A DNA stretch of 64,000 bases. Origin: a virus. Its lineage: Duplodnaviria > Heunggongvirae > Uroviricota > Caudoviricetes. Each line of letters opens with the position of its first letter. Positions within the stretch are counted from its first letter, which is position 1. Position numbers and translations under genes: made by a program. The notes below the pieces were generated by a model that was not told where the DNA came from, ran no database searches, and saw nothing but the letters and a program-made list of their open reading frames with translations. Shown here one piece after another: positions 1,082 to 63,961 of this stretch. Where the stretch lies: positions 38,718-102,717 of IMG/VR virus record IMGVR_UViG_3300025602_000002. The stretch is one strand, 5' to 3'.

Positions 1082-2566
1082 TTAAAATTTTTGTTCGTTT
1101 CTTAGTGAATTACATTTAAAATTGCAAAATAATCCACATTTTAATTTACCATCAGTAAATAGATCCGCAGACTTAGTTTGTAGAGTTGCCCACGTTTTAA
1201 ATAAATGTTCTTTATCTAAGGGACAGTCAATTTTGTTTATTTTGTAAAAAGCTTTTTTTAGATTAGGTTTCTTATTATAAAGTTTCCCGTATAATACCTT
1301 GTATTCTAAATATCTCTTTACCTCTTTTAAAGCTTTTTCAGGGAATTCAGTATAATTAGATAGTAAAGATTTTAGATCTTCATCGCTAATTTTCAACATA
1401 AATTTCTCTGGGGCTACTACAGCTAAATGGGCATTTATTCTACTACGTAACTGCTCGACTCTCGTCATTTTAATATCTTTCCTACCGGTGCCCCATCTGT
1501 CCGCTATCCGTAAATCTAATAAATCGTGTATGTTATCTTCTCCAACTCTACCAATAAATTTCTTTAAGGAAGCGCTCGATTTGCAAGCTACGATATTAAA
1601 TAAATGATTTTTAACAAGTAAGACTACTTTTTGTGAAAGCTTCTTTGGAAATCCCCATCTGTATAAAATACGTTCAGCTAAAATTGCTCCAACATTTTCA
1701 TGTGAATAAAAATGTAAGCCAGTATCAGTTATAATTTGGGTTTGAGGTTTACCTATATCATGCAATAACGCCGCCAATCTTAATATTAAAGTATTTGGGC
1801 GACCTATTTTTACAGAATCAAGGGCATACATAATATGCCTATCTAAGGTTAAGCCTTCTTTTTTGTTGCTTTGGGGTATGCCGTATGTATGGGTGTACTC
1901 TGGAAGTATTTGATCAGAAATCCCTAACTGTCTTATTGTATTAAAAAAGTTACTTGGAACCTCACTGCGGGTGAACAGTTTTTCTAATTCAGATCGAAGT
2001 TGTTGAGAGTGTACCGTACTTATTTTCAATCGATGCTCTTTTATACTCTTAACTGTTTCCTCCTCTATCTTCCATTCAGATCCTAACAAACTATGAAGTA
2101 CAGCACATCTTAAAATCCTTATTTTAGATTCCAATATTCTAGTTGCACCATCGCCAACAAACTTAATAATTTTATCATGTATGTCACTTATTCCGTTGTG
2201 AAAATCTATCCACTCTTCTGTTATAGGCTCATAGTATAAACTATTAATAGTAAAGTCTCTTGAATTAGAATCTTCTAATAAACTACTTGTAAATTCGTAG
2301 TTATAATATGTATTAGATAATGTTACCTTTTTTAGTGGATATAGTATAAATTTAGTATCATTATATTGTATTGTAATCGAGGTGTCATAGGTGCTAATGG
2401 ATGTTATCCTGGAAGCTAATTTCGTTTTTATTTGTGCTAAAGTGCCTTGTACTGCGATATCCCACTCTGTTGGTATCTTCTGCATGTATAAATCTCTAGC
2501 AGCTCCCCCACAAACCCAAGCTTTGAATCCCATTTTATTTAAAAATCTTATTATATGTTTTTCCAT
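1082..2566 (-). CDS. cca: CCA-adding / tRNA nucleotidyltransferase with HD domain (class II)
   Basis: VCGGAARD, EWDIA, RDFTINS, RILR, LLHDIGKP...FYSHENVGA, LRIADRWG. Confidence 0.85.
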   Translation of the reverse strand: MEKHIIRFLNKMGFKAWVCGGAARDLYMQKIPTEWDIAVQGTLAQIKTKLASRITSISTYDTSITIQYNDTKFILYPLKKVTLSNTYYNYEFTSSLLEDSNSRDFTINSLYYEPITEEWIDFHNGISDIHDKIIKFVGDGATRILESKIRILRCAVLHSLLGSEWKIEEETVKSIKEHRLKISTVHSQQLRSELEKLFTRSEVPSNFFNTIRQLGISDQILPEYTHTYGIPQSNKKEGLTLDRHIMYALDSVKIGRPNTLILRLAALLHDIGKPQTQIITDTGLHFYSHENVGAILAERILYRWGFPKKLSQKVVLLVKNHLFNIVACKSSASLKKFIGRVGEDNIHDLLDLRIADRWGTGRKDIKMTRVEQLRSRINAHLAVVAPEKFMLKISDEDLKSLLSNYTEFPEKALKEVKRYLEYKVLYGKLYNKKPNLKKAFYKINKIDCPLDKEHLFKTWATLQTKSADLFTDGKLKCGLFCNFKCNSLRNEQKF

Positions 2567-5382: not shown

Positions 5383-5415
5383 AATGAAATTAAATTAAAT
5401 TAACCGACGTAAAAT

Positions 5416-26235: not shown

Positions 26236-29200
26236 ATGCCAGTCCCAAAATTAAATAGTAACGGTTATTGAGCCAAGACAATTTTACCTACTGAAGGTAA
26301 CGCTGGAGTCCAAGGAATCCAAGGCCCTCAGGGGGCTCAAGGACCTCAAGGCCCTATCGGTCCTGTAGGTGTTCAAGGTTCTCAGGGGATTCAAGGATTT
26401 ACAGGGCCTTCAGGTATTTCTGGCCAAGAAGGTAACCAAGGAAACCAAGGAGACCCCGGATTAAGTGGTCTTTCTGGAGCATCGGGGCCAGATGGAAATA
26501 CTGGGTCTCAAGGAGATCCAGGAATAAGTGGGGTTCCAGGGCTTACTGGTCCAGACGGTAATGAGGGCGCTCAAGGAGAGGCCGGAGTAGGGGGTATTAC
26601 AGGGCTTACCGGTCCAGACGGAAATACTGGGTCTCAAGGGGATCCGGGAGTAAGCGGTATTACAGGGCCTGACGGGCCTGACGGCAATGAAGGTGCTCAA
26701 GGTACCGTAGGAGTTTCAGGTTTTACCGGACTTTCAGGACTAGATGGTAATGTAGGCGCTCAAGGTACTGTAGGTGCTTCAGGTTTTACCGGACTTTCTG
26801 GGCCAGACGGGGTTGTAGGCTCGCAAGGGGCCGTAGGTCCTTCAGGATTTACAGGAGCTGTTGGTCCAGATGGGGACCAAGGTGCTCAGGGAACTTTAGG
26901 AGATACGGGAATTACTGGAGTTTCTGGTCCAGATGGATATACCGGGCCACAAGGCCCGGACGGAGAAGGGGGGCCCCCCGGATTATCAGGAGCCCTAGGA
27001 CCTTACAGTTTTTCTTACTCGTTAGCACAAGACGACTTTTATTGAGTTATGTATGGGGTCAATTACAATGGTACAGGTGCAGAATATATAGCAGAGAATC
27101 CTACACTTATTTCCGGATTAGGTGATAATAATGCTATGTTTATGCTATTTAATCCCTCCACTTCTTCACATTATTTGATGTGGCAATTACAGACAGGCAT
27201 TAACATAGATGTACAATTTGATGTAGACCCTCCAACTACTTATTCTGGAACAGGGTCTGTTATATTTGCTTCAGGATTTAGTCAATGGGGAAGCGCTGTA
27301 TACGTAACAGCTAGCGGTGTGGTTGACCCAGATGAGTGGCGACACTACGCTTGAACTCTAGCCGCTTATGCAGATTTAGATACTACTAAAACCTTAACTA
27401 TTAGAGCTGGTGGCCCAAAAGGTGACCCAGGGGACCAAGGCCCTCAAGGCCCTCAAGGTGAGGAAGGAACCCCAGGAGTGCAGGGGCCTACAGGTTTCTC
27501 TGGGATTCCAGGAGTCCAAGGATTATCAGGTGTTTCTGGCGTTCAAGGACCTACCGGAATTTCAGGAGTTAGCGGTGTTCAAGGATTATCAGGTGTTTCT
27601 GGTGTTCAAGGACCTACCGGAATTTCAGGAGTTAGCGGTGCTCAAGGAATTTCAGGACCTTCTGGGGCTCAAGGGCCTTCAGGAATTTCAGGTCCAAAAG
27701 GTCTTCAAGGGATAGATGGAATTTCAGGACTTCAAGGTCCTTCTGGACTCTCAGGAGCTAAAGGTCTTCAAGGTGTAGACGGTGATCAAGGAATTCAGGG
27801 CCCTACTGGTTTTTCTGGAGTGCAGGGGTACCAGGGGTTACAAGGATTTCCTGGACAACAAGGATTTTCTGGACTTACAGGAGCTAAAGGGGTTCAAGGG
27901 GTAGACGGAGACCAAGGTGTCCAAGGACCTACTGGTTTTTCTGGACCAGACGGCCTTCAAGGTATAGATGGAGTTTCGGGACCTCAAGGGCCTTCAGGAA
28001 TTTCAGGACCAGATGGAGCTCAAGGATTCTCAGGGCCTTCTGGATCTCAAGGGCCTTCAGGAATTTCAGGTCAAAGCGGTTCTCAAGGATTACAAGGGCC
28101 TTTTGGATCAACAGGACTTCCCGGACCGACAGGGGCTTCAGGTATAAGTGGGGCTCAAGGGCTTTCTGGTCCCTCAGGAATTTCAGGACTTCCTGGGCCA
28201 ACAGGGCCTTCAGGTATAAGCGGGGCTCAAGGGCTTTCTGGGCCTGTAGGATTTTCAGGCCCTCAAGGTGCAAGCGGTGTTGTAGGATTTAGTGGTCCAG
28301 ACGGAGTTTTAGGATTACCAGGAAGTGATAATTTAGTAACTAATTATGATTTTGAACATGCAGGTACTAATTTACCTGATGATGGTGGTATAATTTATGG
28401 CTGGATACAAAGTGCTACCTATTCTGTAGGAACTATAATGTCCTCTTTAGTTGACTTAGAGACTGGGCAGAGGAATACTACTGAGTCGAAGTCAGGGGAA
28501 ATTTGTTTAACATTAAGTGATGGTCTTGGCCCAATTGATGGTTCCAACGTAATGACCCATCCAAATCATTTAATGCCTATATCTGATGATGAAAATTATT
28601 TTATATCTTTTTATCATAAAAAAACTAATTCTGAAAGTGCGGTGTCTGCTACACTTACTATAACTGAATGGGATATTGATAAAAAATATATTGGTGAATT
28701 AGTAACTACAGAAACTTATAGTAGTTCTACTTCCTGAGCTAAAGGTTTAGCTATTATTGGTACCCATGTTGACACTTTAGGTACCATTAATACTTCAACA
28801 AGATTTATAGGTATTACTCTAGCTAACGCTACAAGTTCAGAATCACCTGTATATGTAGAAGATATAAGGGTTAGTAGAGAACTTTGAGCTGATTCAATTG
28901 CAATAGGAAAAATTAGTTCTTTAGATGGATCTACTTATTTTGATCTGGATAATAACGAAATAGGATTAGTGAGTGGATTAAATACCGTAAAACTAAATGC
29001 CACGGATGGGCTGGTAGCAGAACATAATGGTATTAGACAATTTGACGCTGGGGTTAAAACTGGAAGAGGATACTTTAAAGGTGGCCATTTAACAGGTAGA
29101 ATTGCCAGTATCCCTGAACATAACTATTCTTTTAATTTAGGAAACAACACATTTGCTGGAATAGAGGACATAACTATTACAATCCCAGCTAATTATACCT

Positions 29201-30141
29201 TTGATGCTATATCTATGGTTTTTCTTAAAACAGACTTATTTATCTGTGGAGGATATACAGATGTACTGGGATTATCGTCTGTTCCTCGTATGTATAAAAT
29301 AAATGTACATACTAAAACAGTTACTTCTCAAGATATTACAGTTCCTGGAGCTTCCACTACAGATTATCCAGCACTATACTCAATTACTACAGACGGCTCT
29401 CTGCTTTATACGGCTATTATCGATGACGAAACCGAAGAAAGCTATTTGTTTAGCGTAGACCCGGACGACATGTCAACACATACACACATTCATACGCTAG
29501 CAGTTGCCGCTTCTATGTTAATATGTGATGGTAGTAATATTTGATCGTGTAATGATGGTGCAGCTACTTGAGACACTAATGCTCTTGAGAAATATAGCAT
29601 AGCAGGAGATTCCTCTGCTACTATTGCTGGATTTGATGGGGTAATGTGAACAGATCGTATATTATATGATGGTACTTATATTTGAACAGCGGAACAAGGT
29701 ACTTGAAATGGACTTCGTAAAATGGCAAAATATAATATTGACGGAGCGTCCTGAGATACCTCTCTTCCTGCGTGAGGAATAAAACCGATTTTTTATGATG
29801 GTATAGATGTCTGATGTTTTTATGGAGCATCACAATCAGCTAACCCTACATTAGCGCGTTTTAAGCAATCTGGAGATGTTCCATTTCAATGGCAATCATT
29901 GCTTGTATCTACGCAGGTAACTGGCGGGATATTTGCCGGAAGAAAAGCCTATTTAACATTAGCGTCTAGTGCTAGTTTAACCATATTTAATACAGAAACA
30001 GCGGTAGAGGAGGGCAGTATTCCCGTAGGAAGTGCTTACGCTGGAATCAGAAACGCTGTGTGAGATGGTGCAAATATCTGATTCCCTTCAACTAGTGGTG
30101 GTTCTGGAGAAAATTTAATTATTAGAAAAATACCAACTTAA
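26236..30141 (+). CDS. Collagen-like tail fibre with C-terminal beta-propeller-like repeats, 1301 aa, 15 in-frame TGA
   Basis: Two Gly-X-Y tracts; CBM-like NLVTNYDFE segment; C-terminal repeats CDGSNIW, YDGTYIW, YDGIDVW, WDGANIW with W encoded by TGA. Confidence 0.8.
26293..28320 (+). repeat. Gly-X-Y collagen repeats (about 26293-27003 and 27410-28320), including a 63-nt tandem duplication at 27517-27642
   Basis: GGN every third codon; unit QGLSGVSGVQGPTGISGVSGV/A occurs twice with 2 nt differences. Confidence 0.9.
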
Positions 30142-31097: not shown

Positions 31098-31289
31098 ATG
31101 GATTTAAAAGATAAAAGAGAGAAGTTAATTGAGGAAAATTTAAAACGAGAACATCTTGTTGATAATTTAAATGAGCAAATAACTAATATACAAACTCAAA
31201 TTGTTTTAGAAAAAGAGGCTCACGACTATACTAGAGGTCAAATAGAGTTATTGGATAAATTACTTAAGGAAAGTACGGAGGATAAATAA
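31098..31289 (+). CDS. Small coiled-coil protein
   Basis: 63 aa, heptad-like, coupled to the holin. Confidence 0.6.
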   Translation: MDLKDKREKLIEENLKREHLVDNLNEQITNIQTQIVLEKEAHDYTRGQIELLDKLLKESTEDK

Positions 31290-31696
31290 TGTCTGTTTTA
31301 AGCAAAGCTTTAGGATCTGTTTTAGGCAAGTCAGGGGTTGGCGAAATTTTAGGCAAGGGTGCTGATATTGTAGGAGAATACATATTAAGTGCTGATGAAA
31401 AAGCTGATATGCAAAAGTGGTTGGATGCTGGTCAAATGAAAATTAATTTGGCTGAAGCTTCTCATAAATCTATATTTGTAGCAGGTTGGCGCCCATTCAT
31501 AGGCTGGGTGTGTGTCTTTGGCTTAGGGTATCAATATGTATTTGCTCCTATTTTGGGAGCTATACTTGCACTGTTCGGCTCTGTAGCTATTTTACCTGTA
31601 TTAGATATGGCAGTATTATTTCCTTTAGTAACTAGTTTACTAGGTATTGGTGGAATGAGAAGCTGGGAAAAATGGAAAGGAGTTAACACTAAATAA
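31289..31696 (+). CDS. Holin (3TM, GTA-type)
   Basis: FVAGWRPFIGWVC...LLGIGGMRSWEKWKG signature; hydrophobic helices; near the amidase. Confidence 0.85.
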   Translation: MSVLSKALGSVLGKSGVGEILGKGADIVGEYILSADEKADMQKWLDAGQMKINLAEASHKSIFVAGWRPFIGWVCVFGLGYQYVFAPILGAILALFGSVAILPVLDMAVLFPLVTSLLGIGGMRSWEKWKGVNTK

Positions 31697-31932: not shown

Positions 31933-32029
31933 GGGTGCGTATTCCCATTTGGTTTATGGGAACGGTCTTCAAAACCGTATGCCGGGGTCCAAGCCGGTTA
32001 TGAGGGTTCGACTCCTTCCGTGCCTGCCA
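31933..32029 (+). tRNA. tRNA with UCA anticodon (opal suppressor / Sec-like), 97 nt
   Basis: Acceptor GGGTGCG/CGTGCCT, long D stem TTCCCAT/ATGGGAA, anticodon arm ACGGT-CTTCAAA-ACCGT (TCA at 31969-31971), 23-nt variable arm, T arm GAGGG-TTCGACT-CCTTC, G73, encoded CCA. Confidence 0.9.
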
Positions 32030-48269: not shown

Positions 48270-51200
48270 ATGGCAGATTTATTAAATTACAACAAACAGA
48301 ACTCAAATATCCAACAGGCTATCCTAAAGTCTATAAATAACGTTTTTCCAGTCACCGCCGGTGATAGAACTCTAGAAATAGCTAATTTAAAAATAGTTGA
48401 CAATCTTAGTTCTGACGATTTCCCTAAACAGAAAGAGTTAAAAATCAATAGGCGTAGCTGACAAATACCTTTATACGCTGATATACTTTTAAAAGATAGC
48501 ACTGGAAAAGTTATTAACCAAAAAAAGAATGCTAAGATAGGAAATATCCCTAAATTAACAAATAGGTTTACTACTATTATTGAAGGAAATGAATACCAAA
48601 CCGTTAATCAACTTCGAAGAAAGCCGGGTATATATGCTCGTATTAAGAAGAATGGTGAGTTAGAAAATGAATTCAATTTAGAAAAAGGTCTTAATTTTAA
48701 AATGCAATTAGATCCTATTTCTGAAAAATTTGTAGTTATTTTCGATAATAGAAAATATAGACTCTGAACTTTATTAAATTTATTAGGTGTAGGCGATGAG
48801 GCTATGCGTAAGGTTTGGGGTACCAAACTATTAGAAGTTAATAAGAAGAATGCTCTCAACACAGAAATTTCTGAAATGACTTCTATTTTCACTAAAATTT
48901 ATCATAGAGATCCTAAAGACTACTCAGAAGTTCTTACCAAATTAAAAGACTATTTTGAAAACTTCACTAAAGTAGACCCCAACACTACCCTCTTAACTTT
49001 GGGTCGAAAACACTCTAATGTTAATGGACAAGCTTTACTAGACTCTTCTAAGAAATTATTAGATATTAATAAAGGTACAGCAGAACCAGATGACAGAGAT
49101 AGTTTAGTTTTTAAACAAATTTTATCAGTAGATGACTTACTTATTAATCATTTTGATAAACAAAAAGACTCTCTTACTAAAAAATTACGATCATCTATGA
49201 TGTTCAAAGATCAAGTACGAGAAATAGTAAGTGCTGGTACTTTTTCAAAACCTATTAAACTATTTTTTACTACTGGCGATTTAAGCTCAACTCCTCCACA
49301 AACAAATCCTGTAGCTATTGTATCCGAATGAAGAAAAACCTCTCCTATGGGTACTGGTGGAATAAAAAGTAAGCACTCAATTACTGAAGAAACTAGGGAT
49401 GTACAGCCTACACACTTAGGGTTTATAGACTCTACAGCTTCTCCAGAAGGTTCAAAAATTGGAGTAACTTTAGGAATGACCTCTGAGGTTGTTAAAGAAG
49501 GTAATGAGCTGAAATCTCCAGTATATAATACTTCTGGTAAACTAGTATATATTAGTCCTTTAGAATTCTTTGAAAGTTATGTAGTGTACCCAGATCAATA
49601 TGAAATATCTGGCTCTACTATTACTCCTAAATTTAAGTCAATACACGCAATGTATAAGGGTGAACTTATACGTATTGCCCCAAGTAAGGCTAATTATTAT
49701 ATAAGGTCTCCAAGATCAATGTTTTCTTTTGCCGCTAATGCTATTCCATTTTTAGACGCAGTTCAGGGTAATAGAAGTGCTACTGGTGCTCGTATGATGA
49801 CTCAAGCTATGGCTTTAGATAATAAAGAAGCTCCTTTAGTACAAACCTATAGAGATAAAGATTCTACTTATGAAAAGATTCTTGGTAATTTTCTTAATCC
49901 AGTATACGGACCTAATTTAAAAGGGAAACCTCGTACTGGAACAGTTAGTAAAATTACTAAAGATTATATTTATATCATTGGAAAAGATGGATCTAAAACT
50001 AAAAAAGGTTTATATAACAATTTCCCATTAAATCAAGATGGTTATTTAGATTCTACTCCTTTAGTAAACGTGGGAGATGAGGTTAATAGTAAAACTATAT
50101 TAGCTGAAAATAATTATTCCAGTGGAGATACCCTGTCTATAGGAAAAAATTTAACTACAGCCTATATGACTTATAAGGGTTATAATTATGAAGATGGCGC
50201 TGTAATTACAGAATCAGCTGCTAATAAACTTTCTCATTCTATGCTCCATAAAGTAAATGTATTTTTTACTCCTAAATTATCTGCATTTAGTTTAGAAAAA
50301 TTTAGTGCCTGGTACCCAGACGCTATAACCCCAGATAATAGAAAAAAATTAGATAGCTCTGGTATTATTAAGGTAGGAGAAACAGTTAATCCAGAAGATG
50401 TATTAATTGCATTTTTAGTTAAGCGTGAAATGGACGACCATGAGGTAGCTTTACATAAATTAAGTAAATATACTTTTGGACAATTTAATAAAAATTTAAC
50501 TGAATGGTCTGAAGATGAGCCGGGAGTGGTAACTGATGTAGTTAAGACTGGTAGAAACATAGATATTTATGTTAAATCTACCCATCCTTTTAAAGAAGGT
50601 GATAAACTTTCTGGGCGTTATGGTAATAAATCTATTGTTACTAAAATTATTCCAGACGCAGATGCCCCTCATAGAGAGGATGGTACCCCTATTGACATAA
50701 TGTTAAATGCTCATGGAGTTCCTTCTCGTATGAACATTGGTCAAATTTTAGAGACGGCAGCTGGTAAAATTGCTAAAAAAACTGGTAAACCTTATATTGT
50801 TAAGAATTTTAATAATCCAGAAGGTGACAGATCTGCAGAAGTTTTAGCAGAAATGAAAGAACTTGGTATAGAACCTGATGAAACTTTAACAGATGGTAAA
50901 ACTGGCAAAGCTTTTGATAATCAAATTTTTGTAGGACAACAGTATTTTTTCAAACTTCGACATATAGTCAACAAAAAATTAGGGGCTCATGGTATCGGCC
51001 AATATGATATAGACGAACAGCCTGTAGGAAAGGGTTCACAGCATGTAGGGATTTTAGATAATTATGCATATCTGGCCCACGGAGCAAAAGCCAATTTACG
51101 AGATATTGGAGAGATTAAAGGAAGGTCTAACGATGAATACTGAAGAGACCTACAATTGGGACTGCCGCCTAGTAAGCCTTCTAGAAACTTTGTATTTGAA

Positions 51201-54200
51201 AAGCTAACAACCTATATTCAAGGTCTAGGTGTTAATGTTACTAAAAAAGGTAATAAACTACAAATTTTACCATTAACTGACAAAGATGTTACTAAGCTGT
51301 CTAATGGCGCATTAGAAAAGCCAGGAACTATGTTAGTTGGTAAAAATTTAATGACTAGAGCCGGTGGATTATTCGATGAAAAGATTACTGGTGGAATTAG
51401 CGGCACGTTATGGTCTCATATTAATTTAGCAACTAATTTACCTAATCCTATGTTTGCTCCTGCAATTACTAAAATATTAGGTATTACTGACAAGAAATAT
51501 AGCGACATTATAGATGGGAAATTAAAGCTAAAAGGTAAGTCTGGAATTCCGGCTATTATCTCTGCTTTAGAAGCCTATGATGTTGACGCTGAGCTTGTTA
51601 AGGCTACAGCAGCTTTAAAAACTGCCCCTGTATCCTCGGTGAATAGTTTAAATACTAAGGTTAGGTATCTACAAAATTTAAGTAGAATGAAATTAAACCC
51701 AAAAGAAGCCTATACTATTACTAAAATACCAATATTACCTCCTAAATTTAGACCTATCTATTCTTTACCTACTGGTGATTTAATGACTAGCGATATCAAT
51801 AAACATTATAGAGATATTGGGGTTATAAACACAGCTTTAAAAAGTACTAAAGATATTATAGGCGCAGATGAGGTTTTAAGAGCTAATAGATCATTGTATG
51901 ATTCTGTAAGAGCTATGCAAGGTTTTATAGAACCTATAACCTATGGCGGTGAAAAGTATAAAGGGATTTTAGAAGAAATAGGAGAAAGTAAAAAAGGCTT
52001 AATACAAGGAAAATCCTGGGGCAAGCGTCAAGACTTAAGTGCTCGAAGTACTATCATTGTTGACCCCGATTTAGGTCTAAATGAGGTAGGTACTCCATTT
52101 AAAATAGCTTATTCTATTTATAAACCTTTTATTATAAAGAATTTAAAGGAATTTGGATTAAAAGCTACAGCCGCAGTAAGGGAATACAAAGATGAAACTG
52201 ATTTAGCAAAATCAGCTCTCGTTGATGAAATGAAACGTAGACCCGTAATTATGAACAGAGCTCCTACACTTCATAAGCATGGAGTTCAAGCTTTTAAACC
52301 TCAATTAGTAGATGGTAAATCTATTAGAATGAATCCTCTTGTTATGAGAGGTTTCAACGCTGATTTTGACGGCGATACTATGTCTGTAATGGTACCTGTT
52401 TCTGCTGAATCTGTAGAGGAAGCTAAAAACATGATGCCTAGCAAGATCTTATTTAAGCATGGAGATAACTCTATTGTTCCAGAGATTAGTAAAGAATATG
52501 TTTTTGGAATACACCAGCTAAGTCTTATTAAAGAAAAATCTAAAGAATCTTTTAAATCTATTTCTGACGCTAAAAAAGCCAAAATTCCATGGACTACTCA
52601 GTTTGATCTTAACGGTACAAAAGTGACTATAGGGCAGTTTTATATTAATTCTGAATTACCTGAAAAATTAAGGGATTACGAACGAGTATTAACTGCTAAA
52701 GTGTCTGAAAAACTTTTAACCACTATCGCAACTACTTACCCTAATTATTTTACAGATGTAATTAATTCTTGGAAATCTTTAGGAGCTATGCAGGCCACTT
52801 TACATGGCAATACCTTATCATTAAATGACTTTGTAATAGATAGAGCCTATAGAGATGATCTTTTAAAAGAAAAACTTCCTGCAATTAATAAATTAAAAGG
52901 GCAGACTAGAATTGACTCTTTAAACAAATTAACTATAGAAGTTCAAAAAGCTCAGGATAAAAGTGTACGGGGTAGAAATAACATCTACGACATGTTGGAT
53001 TCAGGCTCATTTGGTAAAACTGATTCTGTACGACAAATTTTATCTATGCCTGGGGTTCTAATGGACACCAAAGGCCGTCCTATCCCCTATCCTGTGTTAA
53101 AATCGTATGGAGAGGGTTTAGATACCCCTTCTTATTTTGCGTCCTTATATGGAGTTCGTAAAGGTAATATTGACAGGTCCGTAAATACAGAGCAATCTGG
53201 TGCTTTAAACAAAGCGTTATTAAACATTAATAGACGTTTGTTAATAACTGTAGAAGATTGTAATACTCGTAAAGGTTTAGAAATTGGCGTAAATGACAAG
53301 AATGTTATAGATCGCATGTTACTTAACTCTGTATCGGGTGTGGGGAAAAGAAATGACATTGTAGATTCAAATGTTTTATTAAGAGCTAAAAAGGATAAAT
53401 TAAAAACTCTATGGGTTAGATCGCCATTAACTTGCGAAGCAGTTGAAGGGATTTGTCAAGCCTGTTATGGGTTAATGCCTAATGGAAAATTATCTGTATT
53501 AGGAGAAGCGGTAGGAGTATTAGACGGACAGGCCATTACCGAAAGATCTACACAATTAGTTATGCAAACTTTCCATACAGGGGGAACTGCCTTAGGTGGC
53601 GGTGGTGGTGGTGCTGTAACTGGTTTCCCACGTTTAAAACAATTATTTTTTGTACCTCAAAAATTAAGTGGAAAAGCTACGTTATCTACTGTAAAGGGGA
53701 CTATAAAATCTATTAAGAAAAATCTTACTGGAGGGTACTCCGTTAGGATAGAGGGTTATGGGGAAAAGAATGATAAAACCTTTACTATACCTTCCGGTAG
53801 ACTGCCTATTGTAACAGAAGGAGTTAAAATAGGAATTGGAGACGCCATATCTGATGGAATTATAAAACCTCAGGAACTTGGAGAATTAAAGGATCACTTA
53901 TCAGCTCAGAAGTATTTAGTAGAAGAAGCTTCAAAAGTTTATGGGGGAAAATTCTTTAATAAAACATTTGAAACCGTAATTCGTGGAATTAGTGATAATG
54001 CCCAAATTACAGTAGCTCCTGAGGGTAGCGGATTCCTAAGAGGAGATAGAACTACTATAAGTTATTTAAACGCTCTAAACAAAGATAGAAAAAAAGAAAA
54101 ACTTCCATTAATCGAATATGACGCATATTTTAAATCAATAGACTCATTAAATGCTGATAGCGACGATTGGTTAACTAGAGTTAGTGCGAACAGAGTAAAA

Positions 54201-54329
54201 CGGGGCTTAACTGTAGGAGCTGCAAAAGGCTTATGAGCTAACATTCGAGGTAAAGACCCTGTACCAGCGTTCATTTATGGAGATAACTTTGGTAAAAACA
54301 CTAATTATCAAAAGGGGGAATTCTTTTAA
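48270..54329 (+). CDS. rpoBC: Fused beta/beta-prime multisubunit-type RNA polymerase, 2019 aa, 5 in-frame TGA
   Basis: Four track ORFs share one frame. Beta motifs GDKLSGRYGNK, GVPSRMNIGQILE; beta-prime motifs GKRQDLSARS, NRAPTLHK, FNADFDGDTM, TQLVMQTFHTGG; TAA at 54327. Confidence 0.92.
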
Positions 54330-58145: not shown

Positions 58146-58180
58146 AATTTGTTTTTTTCCTTATTTGGTTAATTCGGGTG

Positions 58181-58551
58181 TGGAGGTGGGGAGAATCGAA
58201 CTCCCGTCTTAACATGGTCCATATCAGGTCATTCACATGCTTAGTCTAGTTTGCTAGTTAAGGTCATCATTCTTGACAAATTGTACCTCGCTCCTTTAAT
58301 GTTTGTCGTAACCCCCGTAAGTCGTTTGGGACGGTGCGTCTGGATTATTCGTCCCACAACACTTGGACTATCCGATAAATGATGCCTATTTAACTATCGG
58401 AGTCAATAAATAGACATTAACGAAATCGTAGAGGTTAGTCTACGCCGCTAATTTAACTGCTGGTCTGCCAGTTATTTTGTTTTGATTGCTTAGCCAATCA
58501 CTCTGCGTGCACCTGTATACTTGTCCATACTAATCGAAACCGGGCACCCCC
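58181..58551 (-). ncRNA. ssrA: tmRNA, tag (A)GRPAVKLAA
   Basis: 5' GGGGGTG...TTCGA; AAAATAACT then GGC AGA CCA GCA GTT AAA TTA GCG GCG TAG; 3' GGGAGTTCGATTCTCCCCACCTCCA; G3-U70 pair; CCA not encoded. Confidence 0.92.
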
Positions 58552-61028: not shown

Positions 61029-61058
61029 TTAGTTTTACCGGTTATAGGTTTAAGTTTG

Positions 61059-61131
61059 TACCCCAGGAGGGAGTTGAACCCCCGACCTCTTCGTTCGTAG
61101 CGAAGTGCTCTTCCATCTGAGCTACTGAGGC
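61059..61131 (-). tRNA. tRNA-Arg(ACG), CCA not encoded
   Basis: Anticodon arm CTTCG-CTACGAA-CGAAG; T loop TTCAACT. Confidence 0.9.
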
Positions 61132-61140
61132 AAAGTTATT

Positions 61141-61280
61141 GGTACTGGCCTGATCTACACTTAGGGTCCACGCCTATGCCATGCTTCGACCACGTTGATA
61201 ATACGTCCAGTTTCCTGGGGGCGTCACCACACGTTTTACGCTGCTCCAGCTGTTTTCAGTCCCCTAATTCGGGGAATACC
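61141..61280 (-). ncRNA. Unidentified ~140-nt structured RNA between two tRNAs
   Basis: Ends pair (GGTATT/AGTACC); hairpins TCCCC/GGGGA, CTG-AAAA-CAG, CCAG-GAAA-CTGG. Confidence 0.5.
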
Positions 61281-61294
61281 AATAATGTTTTGTG

Positions 61295-61380
61295 AGGAGG
61301 GAATGAGACTTGAACTCATGCTGGGTTTCCCCGGGCCTCGATTTAGCAAACCGGCACATTACCGACTCTGTCACCCCTCC
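61295..61380 (-). tRNA. tRNA-Ser(GCT), CCA not encoded
   Basis: Anticodon loop TTGCTAA, long variable arm, T arm ATGAG-TTCAAGT-CTCAT. Confidence 0.85.
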
Positions 61381-61387
61381 TTACTTC

Positions 61388-61672
61388 TTAAATTCTTTTC
61401 CATTCTCCATTATCATTATATAGTTCTGCAGAATATGTAAACCCTCTACCTTTTAAATAGGAGTTAGTTCTGGCCCAAACATTTTTCCCTGAAACTATAA
61501 TTTTAAATAAAGGTTCGTCGACTGTTTTAAGGTCACTTAGTGATATATAAAATAGTCCCCCATCTCTGACATCGTCTATACCCTCTTGTCTTCCTAGGGG
61601 GCTGTCTAATACAGGATCGTCAAACACCTGTCCAACTCCCCAAAATGGTGGATTTATACTAAATAGTAACAT
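61388..61672 (-). CDS. Hypothetical protein
   Basis: 94-aa ORF. Confidence 0.55.
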   Translation of the reverse strand: MLLFSINPPFWGVGQVFDDPVLDSPLGRQEGIDDVRDGGLFYISLSDLKTVDEPLFKIIVSGKNVWARTNSYLKGRGFTYSAELYNDNGEWKRI

Positions 61673-61677
61673 AATAT

Positions 61678-62130
61678 TTATTTCTTAATGGTTAGGGTGT
61701 TTATCTCTTCTACTACTTCTTTAAATATAGGTATGTCTAAGTATATTTCTCGATATTTACGATGAAACGCCCCATAACCCTCAAGAGTTTGTATACTGTC
61801 CATTGGGAATGAACTTTTAAGCATAACTGGTCGCGTTTTATCTGACATATCCTGCAAAATGTATAAGACTTTATTACCAAACAGGTCAACCTTAACTTTA
61901 TTTTCAAATCCATCGGCTATAGCTTTATTAAATAAATCTATAATATCTTTAGTACGGCCATACCAGTCATTAATTTGTATCCGTTTTTCCATGACCCATA
62001 ACCAAATTATATACTCCTTATGCGTCCCAAATTCTTTTCTATAAGTTTTATGGTTGCTTGCATATAGCTTTTGAAAAGTATAACCCTTTCCTTTTAATTC
62101 ACGTTCTGGTATTGTATAATGAAATATCAT
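61678..62130 (-). CDS. Hypothetical protein
   Basis: 150 aa with AGGAAG RBS. Confidence 0.6.
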   Translation of the reverse strand: MIFHYTIPERELKGKGYTFQKLYASNHKTYRKEFGTHKEYIIWLWVMEKRIQINDWYGRTKDIIDLFNKAIADGFENKVKVDLFGNKVLYILQDMSDKTRPVMLKSSFPMDSIQTLEGYGAFHRKYREIYLDIPIFKEVVEEINTLTIKK

Positions 62131-62151
62131 ATACTTCCTTTTTTTATTGTG

Positions 62152-62224
62152 TACCCCCGACAGGACTCGAACCTACATAACCCGGGGTAGAATCCCGGTG
62201 CTATTCCATTTCAGCTACGGAGGC
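62152..62224 (-). tRNA. tRNA-Arg(TCT), CCA not encoded
   Basis: Anticodon arm CCGGG-ATTCTAC-CCCGG; T loop TTCGAGT. Confidence 0.85.
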
Positions 62225-62232
62225 ATAAACCT

Positions 62233-62472
62233 TTACAGTTTTCTGTTTTTTAATCCCTCTATTACTTGCGCTTCCGTTATAAAAAAGAAGGGCATTTTCT
62301 TTTGTCCCATAACTACTCCATAATCTGGATTAGCTCCAGGATAAGCTCTTTTTAGTTTAGCTTCAAATTGTTTATACATAAGAGCGCCAAATGGATTTAA
62401 GAGTTTATCTATATCAACTTCTTCTTTCCAGCTTGTACGTCCATTAGTCCCTTCATTCACAACCATATACAT
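62233..62472 (-). CDS. Hypothetical protein
   Basis: 79-aa ORF. Confidence 0.5.
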   Translation of the reverse strand: MYMVVNEGTNGRTSWKEEVDIDKLLNPFGALMYKQFEAKLKRAYPGANPDYGVVMGQKKMPFFFITEAQVIEGLKNRKL

Positions 62473-62735
62473 TATAAAGGTAGTATGGTTATGATTTTAA
62501 GAGTTGATGGGGTTACTTTTCCGAAGTATGCTTTTACTGTTAAACTTCCATCTTTCAAGTGATAGTATGATTCTGGAATATATCTAAAAGTGTGAGTTAA
62601 ATCGAACACTATGTCTTTTCCCACTTTACAGTATAAAAATGAATCTCTCCTATCACCAGGAGTTTCAATTTTAAATACTGTTCCTGAAGCTAAGCTTTCG
62701 ACAAGCTCAAACCCTTTTAATTCTGGTTGTGTCAT
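62472..62735 (-). CDS. Hypothetical protein
   Basis: 87-aa ORF. Confidence 0.5.
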   Translation of the reverse strand: MTQPELKGFELVESLASGTVFKIETPGDRRDSFLYCKVGKDIVFDLTHTFRYIPESYYHLKDGSLTVKAYFGKVTPSTLKIITILPL

Positions 62736-62797
62736 TTAGTTTCCTCTTTCATTTCGTTGTATCCATCCCATAAATTTGGCGATTAGTTTATTAGTTT

Positions 62798-63019
62798 CTA
62801 CATACATGGGAATAACTGATTATACATAGCCCTATAAGCTTCTTCTGGAATTGTTTCCTCTACGCTACTCTTATCTTCTTCCATAAATATGGAAGCGCTA
62901 ATTATTTTTCTAGTTATTGCTTCATTAAAACATTCGTCGCAAATATACCCATGTATAGCGTTAAGCCTGTTACATAGTATATTATCGCAACCCCTTCTAT
63001 CACATTCATTTACACCCAT
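62798..63019 (-). CDS. Small Cys-rich protein
   Basis: CDRRGC...C...CDEC. Confidence 0.55.
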   Translation of the reverse strand: MGVNECDRRGCDNILCNRLNAIHGYICDECFNEAITRKIISASIFMEEDKSSVEETIPEEAYRAMYNQLFPCM

Positions 63020-63309
63020 TACTCTTCTTCCGCATCCGTTATAAAAGTATTCCAGTCATCCTGAAAGTGGTCATCATCTTTTTCATAAATTCTTTCAAAA
63101 CGGTCCACCATTTCTCCACGTATAGAGCTCTCATCCATATGATCATAAGCCTTTAAAGCCAAGCGCTCTCTATTTTCTTCTGTGTTTTCGATTTTAGACG
63201 GAATGTTAGCCTCGTCTATACTTTTTTCAGATAGGTGATGAAATATGTCTCCAAAACTATCTTGCGTTTTTAAAAAGTTTCTAATTTGATTTATATTATA
63301 TGTTTTCAT
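63019..63309 (-). CDS. Hypothetical acidic protein
   Basis: 96-aa ORF. Confidence 0.5.
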   Translation of the reverse strand: MKTYNINQIRNFLKTQDSFGDIFHHLSEKSIDEANIPSKIENTEENRERLALKAYDHMDESSIRGEMVDRFERIYEKDDDHFQDDWNTFITDAEEE

Positions 63310-63315
63310 AGTTGT

Positions 63316-63867
63316 CTATATCTCCCTTATTGATCCTGGTATGACTCTCCATACATCCTCTATAAATATGTCATTATGGTCGTCACCGTCGTTGTGATCA
63401 TTATCGTTGTGGTCGTCACCATCATTATGATCATCCCAGTCGTCATGATCGTTTCCTCCATGGTCGTTTTTATCGCGATTGTCATGTCTTCGTTTTTTAG
63501 ACCCATGGTCATCCTGTTCTTCACAGGAAAGATTCTCTAACAGCACTTCTACAGATCTATAATAGTCTCCTACGTATACAGTACTTATAGCTTTTTTGTT
63601 ACATTCATCTATGTCTATAAATTCTACGCTAGTAAGAATACCGTCCGTACCCTCTAATCCATAGTCAGCAATAACTTGCTCAACCATTCTAATTTTAGAT
63701 AGGGCTTTCCAGTACGCTACTTGAGCTGCCGCGCTTCTACTTGCTATTGTGGTTTCCAGTGTGACTGTACTATATAAAAAGATTACTATTAGTCCCACTA
63801 TAAATGAAACTGCAAGTACAGTTATAGCGAATACAAATCCTTTTTCATCTTTATCTTTTGGTATCAT
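63316..63867 (-). CDS. PilX/GspK-like minor-pilin-type protein with His/Asp-rich repeat tail
   Basis: Start moved to ATG 63867 because the track start lies inside a tRNA; KG|FVFAITVLAVSFIVGLIVIFL...AQVAYWKA; tail with DDHND repeats. Confidence 0.55.
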   Translation of the reverse strand: MIPKDKDEKGFVFAITVLAVSFIVGLIVIFLYSTVTLETTIASRSAAAQVAYWKALSKIRMVEQVIADYGLEGTDGILTSVEFIDIDECNKKAISTVYVGDYYRSVEVLLENLSCEEQDDHGSKKRRHDNRDKNDHGGNDHDDWDDHNDGDDHNDNDHNDGDDHNDIFIEDVWRVIPGSIREI

Positions 63868-63887
63868 TGTTTTCCTTTTATTATTTG

Positions 63888-63961
63888 CAACCCCGGTCAG
63901 ATTCGAACTGACGAATACCGCCGTCAAAGGGCGGTGTGTTAGACCACTTCACCACGAGGCA
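63888..63961 (-). tRNA. tRNA-Gln(TTG), CCA not encoded
   Basis: Anticodon arm CCGCC-CTTTGAC-GGCGG; T arm GTCAG-TTCGAAT-CTGAC. Confidence 0.88.

Follow-up and report, generated by a model that had tools for sequence, protein, structure and literature searches.

A putative Trp-inserting opal suppressor tRNA of a phage, with a second anticodon-type hairpin in place of its variable arm

The late genes of the phage considered here use TGA as a sense codon, and a single 97-nt tRNA with a UCA anticodon, encoded between two lysis genes, is by its sequence very probably an opal suppressor that inserts Trp at these codons. Its long "variable arm" appears to be a second anticodon-type hairpin, with a loop that shows CCA, the Trp anticodon. 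Tandem anticodon arms of this kind recur in other viral contigs, and the two-arm tRNA-Trp suppressors are apparently an undescribed family. A reasonably probable explanation of the whole is that the tRNA is the phage's sole UGA reader, is derived from tRNA-Trp, and is charged by the host by way of its CCA arm as a surrogate anticodon.

The phage and its tRNA locus

The 64-kb stretch of DNA analyzed (the window) comes from a single-contig virus record of 205,518 bp, with 36% G+C and rated 97% complete. This record encodes some 30 tRNAs and a tmRNA, and also a multisubunit RNA polymerase, an actin-like protein, and a nucleotidyltransferase of the CCA-adding type. Among GenBank phages it has two relatives, both distant. 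The sources of its closest homologs suggest a marine rather than a gut phage; the host presumably uses the standard code. The genes of the window most relevant here are:

6198-31022, + strand: late block of client genes (sigma-like, baseplate, tail, and tail-fibre), from comparison of code 11 and code 4 ORF lists and from PHROG and Pfam matches
26236-30141: an example client ORF within this block, with 15 in-frame TGAs
31289-31696, + strand: holin gene, without TGA, directly upstream of the UCA tRNA gene (phrog_3427, E 3.7e-23)
31933-32029, + strand: putative tRNA-Trp(UCA) opal suppressor, 97 nt (ARAGORN; Rfam; 40/49 identity to the phage tRNA-Trp(CCA))
32064-32636, + strand: amidase-type endolysin gene, without TGA in this phage (phrog_1493/822)

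The endolysin orthologs of two related contigs (L009 and L010) have TGA at sites where the endolysin of this phage has Trp. A scan for sigma-70 promoters and terminators around the UCA tRNA gene gave nothing above chance; the phage has its own RNA polymerase. An exact-match search of IMG/VR found no near-identical UCA tRNAs.

UGA recoding of the late genes

Several blocks of the genome, including positions 6198-31022 of the window, have ORFs whose length depends on reading TGA as sense; further blocks follow the standard code. The 62 late ORFs contain 231 in-frame TGA codons and 152 TGG codons, compared to 0 and 326, respectively, for the standard-code blocks. TGA serves as the stop codon of 4 of 93 ORFs in the standard-code blocks, and each of these is backed by TAA or TAG within 3-9 codons. 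Given the lack of in-frame TGA there, and the rarity and backing of TGA stops, the whole genome therefore seems built to tolerate a UGA suppressor. By their ORF structure, the early genes appear to be in the standard code and TGA-as-Trp codons to be confined to late genes (structural, glycan, and packaging). TAG recoding of this genome was also considered, and rejected: the in-frame TAGs merely fuse neighboring genes.

To identify the amino acid without favoring any residue, TGA was translated as X and the products were aligned against standard-code homologs. Three conserved proteins provide 10 sites:

GDP-mannose 4,6-dehydratase (Gmd) X39: H in 56, W in 34, and Y in 21 of 120 homologs
Gmd X242: W in 119 of 120 homologs; the invariant W of YVEAMWLMLQQ in solved structures
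Gmd X328: W in 102 of 120 homologs
AsnB-like amidotransferase X50: F in 91 of 119 homologs
AsnB-like amidotransferase X189: W in 118 of 119 homologs
AsnB-like amidotransferase X366: W in 119 of 119 homologs
AsnB-like amidotransferase X407: W in 108 of 119 homologs
Terminase large subunit (TerL) X208: W in 95, the top residue
TerL X238: W in 56, the top residue
TerL X384: F, Y, or W

Trp is the top residue at seven of these and aromatics are found at three. The TGA sites of TerL behave as do its own TGG sites, and the AsnB-like gene has no TGG codons at all. When related phages are compared, TGA pairs with TGA 10 times; of 21 pairings with sense codons, 10 are with W and one is with Ser. From the homolog residues and these pairings together, TGA is therefore read as Trp, and Ser, Sec, Cys, and Gly may be regarded as excluded as its general meaning in this phage. 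A first, sequence-only reading of the window had taken its TGA contexts to demand Trp, and the homolog columns of Gmd, AsnB-like, and TerL agree.

Structure of the UCA tRNA

ARAGORN reports a tRNA of 97 nt with anticodon tca at 31933-32029 on the forward strand. Its parts, all on that strand, are:

31933-31939, + strand: 5' strand of the acceptor stem, GGGUGCG, paired with CGUGCCU at 32019-32025 (read from the sequence)
31943-31961, + strand: extended D arm, with a 6-bp stem (U11-A29 to U16-A24) and a 7-nt loop, UUGGUUU (RNAfold)
31962-31978, + strand: decoding anticodon arm, ACGGU-CUUCAAA-ACCGU, with anticodon UCA at 31969-31971 (sequence and ARAGORN)
31981-31998, + strand: extra-arm hairpin, with helix GCCGG/CCGGU and loop GGUCCAAG, including U-CCA-A at 31988-31992 (family-conserved loop on a covarying helix)
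32002-32018, + strand: T arm, GAGGG-UUCGACU-CCUUC, with a G51.U63 wobble (read from the sequence)
32026, + strand: discriminator G73, followed by an encoded CCA at 32027-32029 (read from the sequence)

The acceptor stem has seven pairs, three of them G.U (G1.U72, G2-C71, G3-C70, U4.G69, G5.U68, C6-G67, G7-C66). There is no eighth pair, U8 being opposite C, and the acceptor/T branch is 7+5 rather than 8+5. A 3-nt linker (U8 A9 U10) precedes the D stem, and an A14-type position is absent. C34 to U and one stem pair distinguish the decoding arm from its counterpart in the tRNA-Trp(CCA) of the phage. The extra arm is 23 nt long (nt 47-69), and its stem has 5 bp, from G49.U66 to G53-C62. The five-arm cloverleaf has a predicted energy of -34.3 kcal/mol, against -34.5 for the minimum free energy (MFE) fold; for the nearest tRNA relatives (L108 and L010) the five-arm cloverleaf is itself the MFE fold. 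In fold energy the tRNA does not stand out from shuffled sequences (z = -1.26), as is usual for tRNAs.

The tRNA-Sec model of Rfam (RF01852) matches the UCA tRNA with 48.5 bits, the gathering score being 47, in an alignment that forces it into a 9/4 fold with mismatches and a deletion. Because the same model gives 50.3 bits to the phage's ordinary tRNA-Ser(UGA), the match is not specific for Sec; the "Sec" call merely reflects the long arm. As far as anatomy is concerned, the sequence-only reading holds up well: the 97-nt UCA-anticodon tRNA at 31933-32029 is supported by ARAGORN and by the 48.5-bit Rfam match, its position between holin and endolysin genes by the phrog_3427 and phrog_1493/822 matches, and the D stem, lack of A14, 23-nt arm, G73, encoded CCA, and 7+5 branch are as read from the sequence.

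A single UGA reader with a Trp-like body

No second UGA-reading tRNA was revealed in the 205 kb by ARAGORN, by Rfam on the remaining genome, or by searching for anticodon arms with UCA; a single tRNA overlooked by ARAGORN carries the anticodon AUU. The 97%-complete genome also has no TrpRS/TyrRS-type enzyme, class IIa aminoacyl-tRNA synthetase, SelA (PF03841), or release factor, and no TrpRS was found in five related records. A normal tRNA-Trp(CCA) for UGG is encoded.

Over the 49 positions of the acceptor, anticodon, and T arms (D and extra arms left out), the UCA tRNA is identical to this tRNA-Trp(CCA) at 40. The next best of the other phage tRNAs is Leu, with 32, and the two Ser tRNAs have 31 and 24. 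The unusual wobbles G5.U68 and G51.U63 are common to the UCA tRNA and tRNA-Trp(CCA), as is G73. By this comparison, the body of the UCA tRNA is that of a tRNA-Trp derivative.

These results alter much of the earlier interpretation. A Sec/Ser-like body had been proposed, which does not agree with the 40 identities to tRNA-Trp(CCA) and the 31 and 24 to Ser; and the apparent paradox of a Trp tRNA with a long arm dissolves if, as discussed below, the arm is a copy of the tRNA-Trp anticodon hairpin and not an arm of the SerRS type. Of the proposed Trp-accepting opal suppressor on a type II scaffold, the first part survives, as a UGA decoder that would insert Trp and is unusual for a tRNA-Trp, while the scaffold turns out to be Trp-like. 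The aminoacyl-tRNA synthetase suggested to lie elsewhere in the phage genome is not found in the 97% available. The other suggestion, a selC derivative accompanied by a separate Trp suppressor, has no second UCA tRNA to call upon, and the conventional tRNA-Trp(UCA) that had been named as a counter-indication was looked for genome-wide and is not present.

One alternative for amino acid identity is a Ser-accepting suppressor, with the long arm recruiting SerRS and UGA read as Ser. G73 would be compatible with this, but Ser hardly ever occupies a position aligned with TGA (0/360 in Gmd, 3/119 at a single AsnB-like site, 1/21 in relatives), the body is closer to tRNA-Trp than to either tRNA-Ser, and mass spectrometry found Trp inserted by 13 of 13 phage UCA tRNAs analyzed (10.1101/2025.10.30.685624). 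We consider it exceedingly unlikely.

Occurrence of the tRNA follows recoding. In all three recoded relatives (L009 and L010/L011) the endolysin gene is closely preceded by a homologous UCA tRNA, and both non-recoded relatives (L012 and L014) have none at the homologous locus; the 100%-complete genome containing L014 has no UCA tRNA anywhere. A rule that such tRNAs are always next to endolysin genes was tried and rejected: the gene downstream of the closest tRNA relative (L108) is unrelated to endolysin.

The extra arm as a second anticodon-type hairpin

The three homologs at the endolysin locus have extra-arm stems that are unrelated in sequence, but all have the loop U-CCA-A. For a broader sample, long-arm UCA tRNAs were retrieved from IMG/VR with a pattern that fixed the UCA loop and T loop only, leaving the arm unconstrained. 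This yielded 55 distinct tRNAs. CCA is found in the extra-arm loop of 0 of the 14 with an 8/5, selC-type branch, and of about 39 of the 41 with a 7/5 branch, (A/G)1-U72, and G73; the latter count takes in L023, three tRNAs whose ARAGORN starts are shifted by one base, and two of four 7/5 tRNAs with G1-C72 (L050 and L089), and leaves out three without G73 (L026, L063, and L087).

In an alignment of 34 members of the 7/5 class, the U, C, C, A, and A of the extra arm are invariant or almost so. A helix of at least 4 bp closes a loop of exactly 7 nt (N-U-CCA-A-N) in 24 of the 34, compared to none for shifted registers; eight more have one mismatched closing pair followed by 4-6 pairs, and L023 and the tRNA of the present phage fall outside the 7-nt register. 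Compensatory changes are found at all five pairs of the helix, with a covariation of 0.70, compared to 0.18 +/- 0.02 for shuffles (0 of 500 reach 0.70) and at most 0.14 for slid partners. The modal arm has 5 bp and 7 nt, the size of an anticodon arm, with linkers of 4-5 nt on the 5' side and 3-4 nt on the 3' side, the latter being the length of an ordinary variable loop. One member has an extra arm identical at 17 of 17 positions to the anticodon arm of tRNA-Trp(CCA), and the G51.U63 wobble is retained in 32 of the 34. From the conserved U-CCA-A loop and the covarying, anticodon-arm-sized helix, the "variable arm" would therefore be a second hairpin of the anticodon type, under selection and presenting the anticodon of Trp.

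It could be supposed that the arm is instead a neutral leftover of an anticodon-arm duplication, with no present function. A duplication or insertion origin does fit the near-perfect copies of the tRNA-Trp anticodon arm found in some members. Over dozens of unrelated phage contigs, however, the stems have fully diverged by compensatory changes and the loop has stayed U-CCA-A; diverged stems around a constant loop are what purifying selection on both loop sequence and helix leaves behind, and lack of function is very unlikely.

The same retrieval bears on the possibility of a selC-type tRNA-Sec, or a repurposed derivative of one, that would require SelA, SelB, and SECIS. The ARAGORN label and the marginal RF01852 match (48.5 vs. 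47) suggest this, and the UCA anticodon, G73, long extra arm, and 6-bp D stem are common to bacterial tRNA-Sec and the present tRNA. The two differ in their branches (7/5 here, 8/5 in tRNA-Sec, and 9/4 with mismatches as Rfam needs it, with tRNA-Ser scoring higher) and in their D loops (7 nt here, 4 in tRNA-Sec). The present tRNA also has a Trp-like body, some 230 in-frame TGAs at Trp positions to read, no accompanying SelA, and a U-CCA-A loop shared by 0 of the 14 Sec tRNAs from viral contigs, and true Sec tRNAs from this retrieval form a separate class. The probability of this alternative is negligible.

Outside the viruses, TCCAA is also carried by the variable arm of one alphaproteobacterial clade of true selC genes; the search of cellular genomes behind this observation demanded TCCAA, and gives no frequencies. 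Because of this clade, the TCCAA pentamer by itself is not diagnostic.

The tRNA of the present phage has the decoding loop CUUCAAA, 7/5 branch, (A/G)1-U72, and G73 of the two-arm family, but departs from it in several respects. Its extra-arm loop is 8 nt (GGUCCAAG), with only two pairs forming in the 7-nt register, and the G in the 38-like position of this loop is unique among the 34 members. Its linkers are short, unlike the family norm. Its first pair is G1.U72, as in about eight of the 34 (read from the alignment), most having A1-U72. In its D arm it belongs with a subgroup (L108, L010, L114, L116, L009, and others) that has D stems of 5-6 bp, unrelated in sequence, following a lead of 3-4 nt. 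On these characters it is best classified as a divergent, atypical member of the two-arm tRNA-Trp family.

Proposed charging by host TrpRS

Identity elements for bacterial TrpRS include G73, the first acceptor pairs, and the anticodon C34-C35-A36, with A1-U72, G2-C71, and G3-C70 forming the bacterial tRNA-Trp acceptor identity; for rice mt-tRNA-Trp, G1-U72 is a reported identity element, and an amber derivative of tRNA-Trp was charged with Gln (all in PMC9976931). Because TrpRS reads C34-C35-A36, a UCA or CUA anticodon costs Trp identity, and because the phage encodes no TrpRS, its UCA tRNA must be charged by a host enzyme.

We propose that this enzyme would be the host TrpRS, for which C34 to U has removed one identity element, and that the extra hairpin, in the place of the variable loop, would show it U-CCA-A as a surrogate anticodon. 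Canonical junctions link the UCA arm to the D stem and, by 3-4 nt, the CCA arm to the T stem; the hairpin might be presented either as a side arm or by a swap into the anticodon-arm position. Against such presentation, known class-II tRNAs direct their extra arm away from the site that the anticodon occupies on TrpRS. The surrogate CCA would keep charging efficient and Trp-specific, leaving the UCA arm to decode on the ribosome, and during infection Trp would be inserted at the ~230 in-frame TGAs of the late genes. A role for the CCA arm as a TrpRS recognition element is somewhat probable in our estimation. More tentative, and on present evidence more doubtful than probable, is the general proposition that host TrpRS reads the CCA of the extra arm and the ribosome the other arm, in a design portable to any stop anticodon, a CUA version making TAG a Trp codon.

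Cell-free data for tRNAs of this kind are available in the supplement of 10.1101/2025.10.30.685624, in which 31 phage tRNA(UCA) were assayed with a UGA reporter in plain E. coli extract; their sorting by architecture was made here, not by the authors of the preprint. With 25,000 units or more counted as active, all 13 two-arm tRNAs were active (26,699-58,947 units, or 33-84% of wild type, with background at 5,403 and wild type at 69,124), against two of 12 one-arm UCA tRNAs (Fisher p = 2e-5), a contrast in which architecture is confounded with acceptor identity and kinship, several of the two-arm tRNAs being near-identical. Five more one-arm tRNAs were weakly active, and the one-arm AP1 and HF2 tRNAs, which travel with their own phage TrpRS, were at background. 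Three assayed tRNAs are identical to loci in our collection (L071, L076, and L119), while that of the present phage is outside the assayed set. At least six of the 13 UCA tRNAs shown by mass spectrometry to insert Trp must be two-arm, even counting the weakly active one-arm tRNAs. A1-U72 and G73 are likewise found in UCA-12 and UCA-18, the active one-arm tRNAs; because these two are active without it, the extra arm is not strictly needed with E. coli TrpRS.

The tRNA could insert Trp with a CCA hairpin that serves something other than TrpRS recognition: a site for modification of the anticodon loop, a decoy against host nucleases directed at tRNA-Trp or against another defence, a processing or stability element, or an alternative decoding arm, allowing one molecule to read both UGG and UGA. 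The last of these is at odds with the normal tRNA-Trp(CCA) for UGG already in the phage. More generally, charging of UCA-12 and UCA-18 in E. coli extract with one arm and a Trp-like acceptor is in keeping with some other role, as are the symmetry of the junctions of the two arms and the conservation of the U-CCA-A-A loop, which resembles that of a protein-recognition motif with nothing to identify the protein. As would be predicted for an identity surrogate, however, the arm is almost confined to tRNAs whose decoding anticodon is not CCA, and a heterologous extract makes good use of every two-arm tRNA assayed, with no phage factor to help. A purpose unconnected to TrpRS is on the whole rather unlikely, and the surrogate anticodon is the reading carried forward here.

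A CUA version in a TAG-recoded phage

The table of 10.1101/2025.10.30.685624 includes one two-arm tRNA with a CUA anticodon. A single near-identical copy is found in IMG/VR, 8 nt after a tRNA-Trp(CCA), in a TAG-recoded phage record of 146 kb (93% complete) in which neither a TrpRS nor a further CUA tRNA is encoded. In this phage, TGG amounts to 0.52% in TAG-rich ORFs, compared to 1.25% in TAG-free ORFs (p = 0.003). TAG and TGG together come to 1.63% in the TAG-rich ORFs, and Gln codons are not depleted there. Depletion of TGG is the same signature as seen for TGA-as-Trp in the present phage. The sole TAG in a conserved domain (SleB-type) aligns with W in 78, F in 20, and Y in 14 homologs (112 of 120). 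A "Q" is found in six; the five listed are among the closest relatives (62-98% identical), and this Q probably stems from source pipelines that assume code 15. PDB, GenBank phages, and IMG/VR relatives added no further TAG sites. Codon composition and this one site point to TAG being read as Trp in the CUA-tRNA phage, with identity set by the body and arm of the tRNA and not by its decoding anticodon.

Comparison with known systems

Phages that recode TGA to Trp in late genes, with suppressor tRNAs beside lysis genes, were described by Borges et al. (10.1101/2021.08.26.457843), who proposed that such tRNAs rely on host TrpRS and explicitly left open how an anticodon-reading host synthetase charges stop-codon tRNAs. 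The present phage is similar, with TGA apparently read as Trp in late, structural, and lysis-region genes, early genes in the standard code, and the tRNA by the lysis genes. Unlike the two "Jade" phages, which have a code-change operon, it is without TrpRS and RF1. It also differs from published descriptions of phage tRNA(UCA) in its second hairpin, bearing CCA. Neither 10.1101/2021.08.26.457843 nor 10.1101/2025.10.30.685624 describes tRNA architecture, and full-text literature searches, with targeted reading of the likeliest papers, turned up no account of a CCA-bearing extra arm.

The closest structural parallels are type II tRNAs (Ser, Leu, and bacterial Tyr) and allo-tRNAs, which likewise have a long helical arm between the anticodon and T arms; allo-tRNAs are also, like the UCA tRNA, non-canonical and found in phages. 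The branches of allo-tRNAs are 8/4 or 9/3, and their identity is Ser (Mukai et al. 2017, PMC5389517). In both of these groups it is the size or orientation of the arm that matters, whereas in the two-arm family the sequence of the arm loop is conserved, and identity is Trp.

In code-4 organisms (Mycoplasma, Spiroplasma, mitochondria), a tRNA-Trp(UCA) derived from tRNA-Trp reads both UGA and UGG as Trp; this is an ordinary one-arm tRNA, charged by a co-evolved TrpRS. The phage tRNA differs in having an extra CCA arm, and in depending for its charging on an enzyme from a host that keeps UGA as a stop.

An anticodon mimic read by an aminoacyl-tRNA synthetase outside a tRNA is known from the HisRS mRNA, which has an anticodon-like element (PMC6542539). 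By analogy, a hairpin showing an anticodon may be bound by the anticodon-binding domain of the cognate synthetase; the HisRS element regulates an mRNA, while here the mimic is inside a working tRNA and would serve aminoacylation.

Implications

For annotation, phage "tRNA-SeC" calls are often Trp suppressors, and genomes containing these need TGA translated as Trp. If the proposed role of the arm is correct, a spare hairpin with the cognate anticodon would be a simple answer to how host TrpRS charges stop-codon tRNAs, and would explain the activity of two-arm tRNAs in a heterologous extract. The rare CUA version would mean TAG read as Trp, a reassignment without report for phages. A tRNA that houses its own surrogate anticodon would establish a new principle of tRNA identity and give synthetic biology a natural blueprint for efficient suppressors, charged independently of their decoding anticodon by anticodon-reading synthetases.

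Two-Arm tRNAs in Other Phages

Other phages with tRNAs of the two-arm type include a 210-kb relative (L010; also L011) and a TAG-recoded 146-kb phage (L174, with the whole contig in L175-L182).

L010:9886-9981 (+), homologous two-arm tRNA of the 210-kb relative, found in L011 too
L174:7800-7892 = G006:C1:10262-10354, two-arm Trp-bodied tRNA with a CUA anticodon

In the tRNA of the 210-kb relative, whose gene ARAGORN does not call, the T loop reads GGCGGUA and the D loop has no GG; both partners in the elbow contact are altered jointly.

In the 146-kb phage, a tRNA-Trp(CCA) sits 8 nt ahead of the CUA two-arm tRNA. Because TGG, and not the Gln codons, is depleted in its TAG-rich ORFs, and because one conserved TAG site corresponds to W, F, or Y in homologs, codon usage and alignment suggest that TAG is read as Trp. 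We know of no reported reassignment of TAG to Trp in phages.

Other Unusual tRNAs of the Window's Phage

Several other tRNAs are encoded elsewhere in the same phage genome, in the stretches L003 and L005:

L003:5393-5469 = genome 105393-105469 (-), CUA (amber-reading) tRNA with G1-C72 and A73, 2.7 kb past the window
L003:13871-13958 (-), tRNA-His(GUG), 88 nt, long extra arm (ARAGORN)
L003:13960-14044 (-), tRNA-Thr(UGU), 85 nt, long extra arm (ARAGORN)
L005:8539-8610 (-), tRNA with anticodon AUU (Rfam, 58.7 bits; absent from ARAGORN output)

No sign of TAG recoding was found in this phage, where in-frame TAGs occur only between fused neighboring genes and TAG is the terminal stop of 46 of 215 ORFs. 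The long-arm tRNA-His and tRNA-Thr are reminiscent of the irregular tRNA-His species that Mukai et al. (2017; PMC5389517) described from phages; as drawn by ARAGORN, their extra-arm loops are UUGC and GAAA, respectively, neither an anticodon copy. The AUU tRNA has the anticodon loop AUAUUAA, with an unusual A34, and a very A/U-rich acceptor stem. An ordinary tRNA-Ser(UGA) at L003:12745-12833 (-) scores 50.3 bits on the Rfam tRNA-Sec model, above its gathering score. A phage gene labeled “tRNA-Sec” can thus be an ordinary tRNA with a long arm.

Associated Genes and Habitat

Other loci of this phage include:

Window 1082-2566 (-), ORF with a PolyA_pol head and an HD domain
Window 48270-54329 (+), RNAP beta- and beta'-like ORFs
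Window 58178-58551 (-), phage-encoded tmRNA, tag GRPAVKLAA
L002:979-9600 (-), recoded glycan-synthesis cluster (Gmd, GT11, GT2, AsnB-like enzyme, TOD1-like protein), same phage genome

By its predicted domains, the first ORF has the make-up of a CCA-adding enzyme, which may be relevant given that the homologous tRNA in L009, a recoded relative, has no encoded CCA. The tmRNA lies beside the point where a large array of tRNA genes begins (window 61058-63961, -). Only in-frame TGAs, a few codons apart, separate the two RNAP-like ORFs, which may be translated by read-through as a single polypeptide and so depend on the suppressor themselves. The phage's Gmd is 73-79% identical to marine (Tara) metagenome proteins, which suggests a marine host.

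UCA tRNAs on Cellular Contigs

True 8/5 selC genes on contigs from Caulobacterales and other alphaproteobacterial MAGs (L131-L162) have GUCCAAA in the variable arm; they were retrieved solely because the search pattern demanded TCCAA. This may be chance within a single lineage; the pentamer is in any case not exclusive to the Trp two-arm family. Two-arm UCA tRNAs with A1-U72 and G73 were found on cellular-binned contigs L129, L136, L144, L146, L147, L148, and L159. The bins are those of Phoenicibacter/Coriobacteriia, Oscillospiraceae, Treponema, Bacilli, and Bacteroides, where one contig, of 1.48 Mb, comes from an isolate, B. neonati. The loci are possible prophages, and the bins provide clues to the hosts of the two-arm family.
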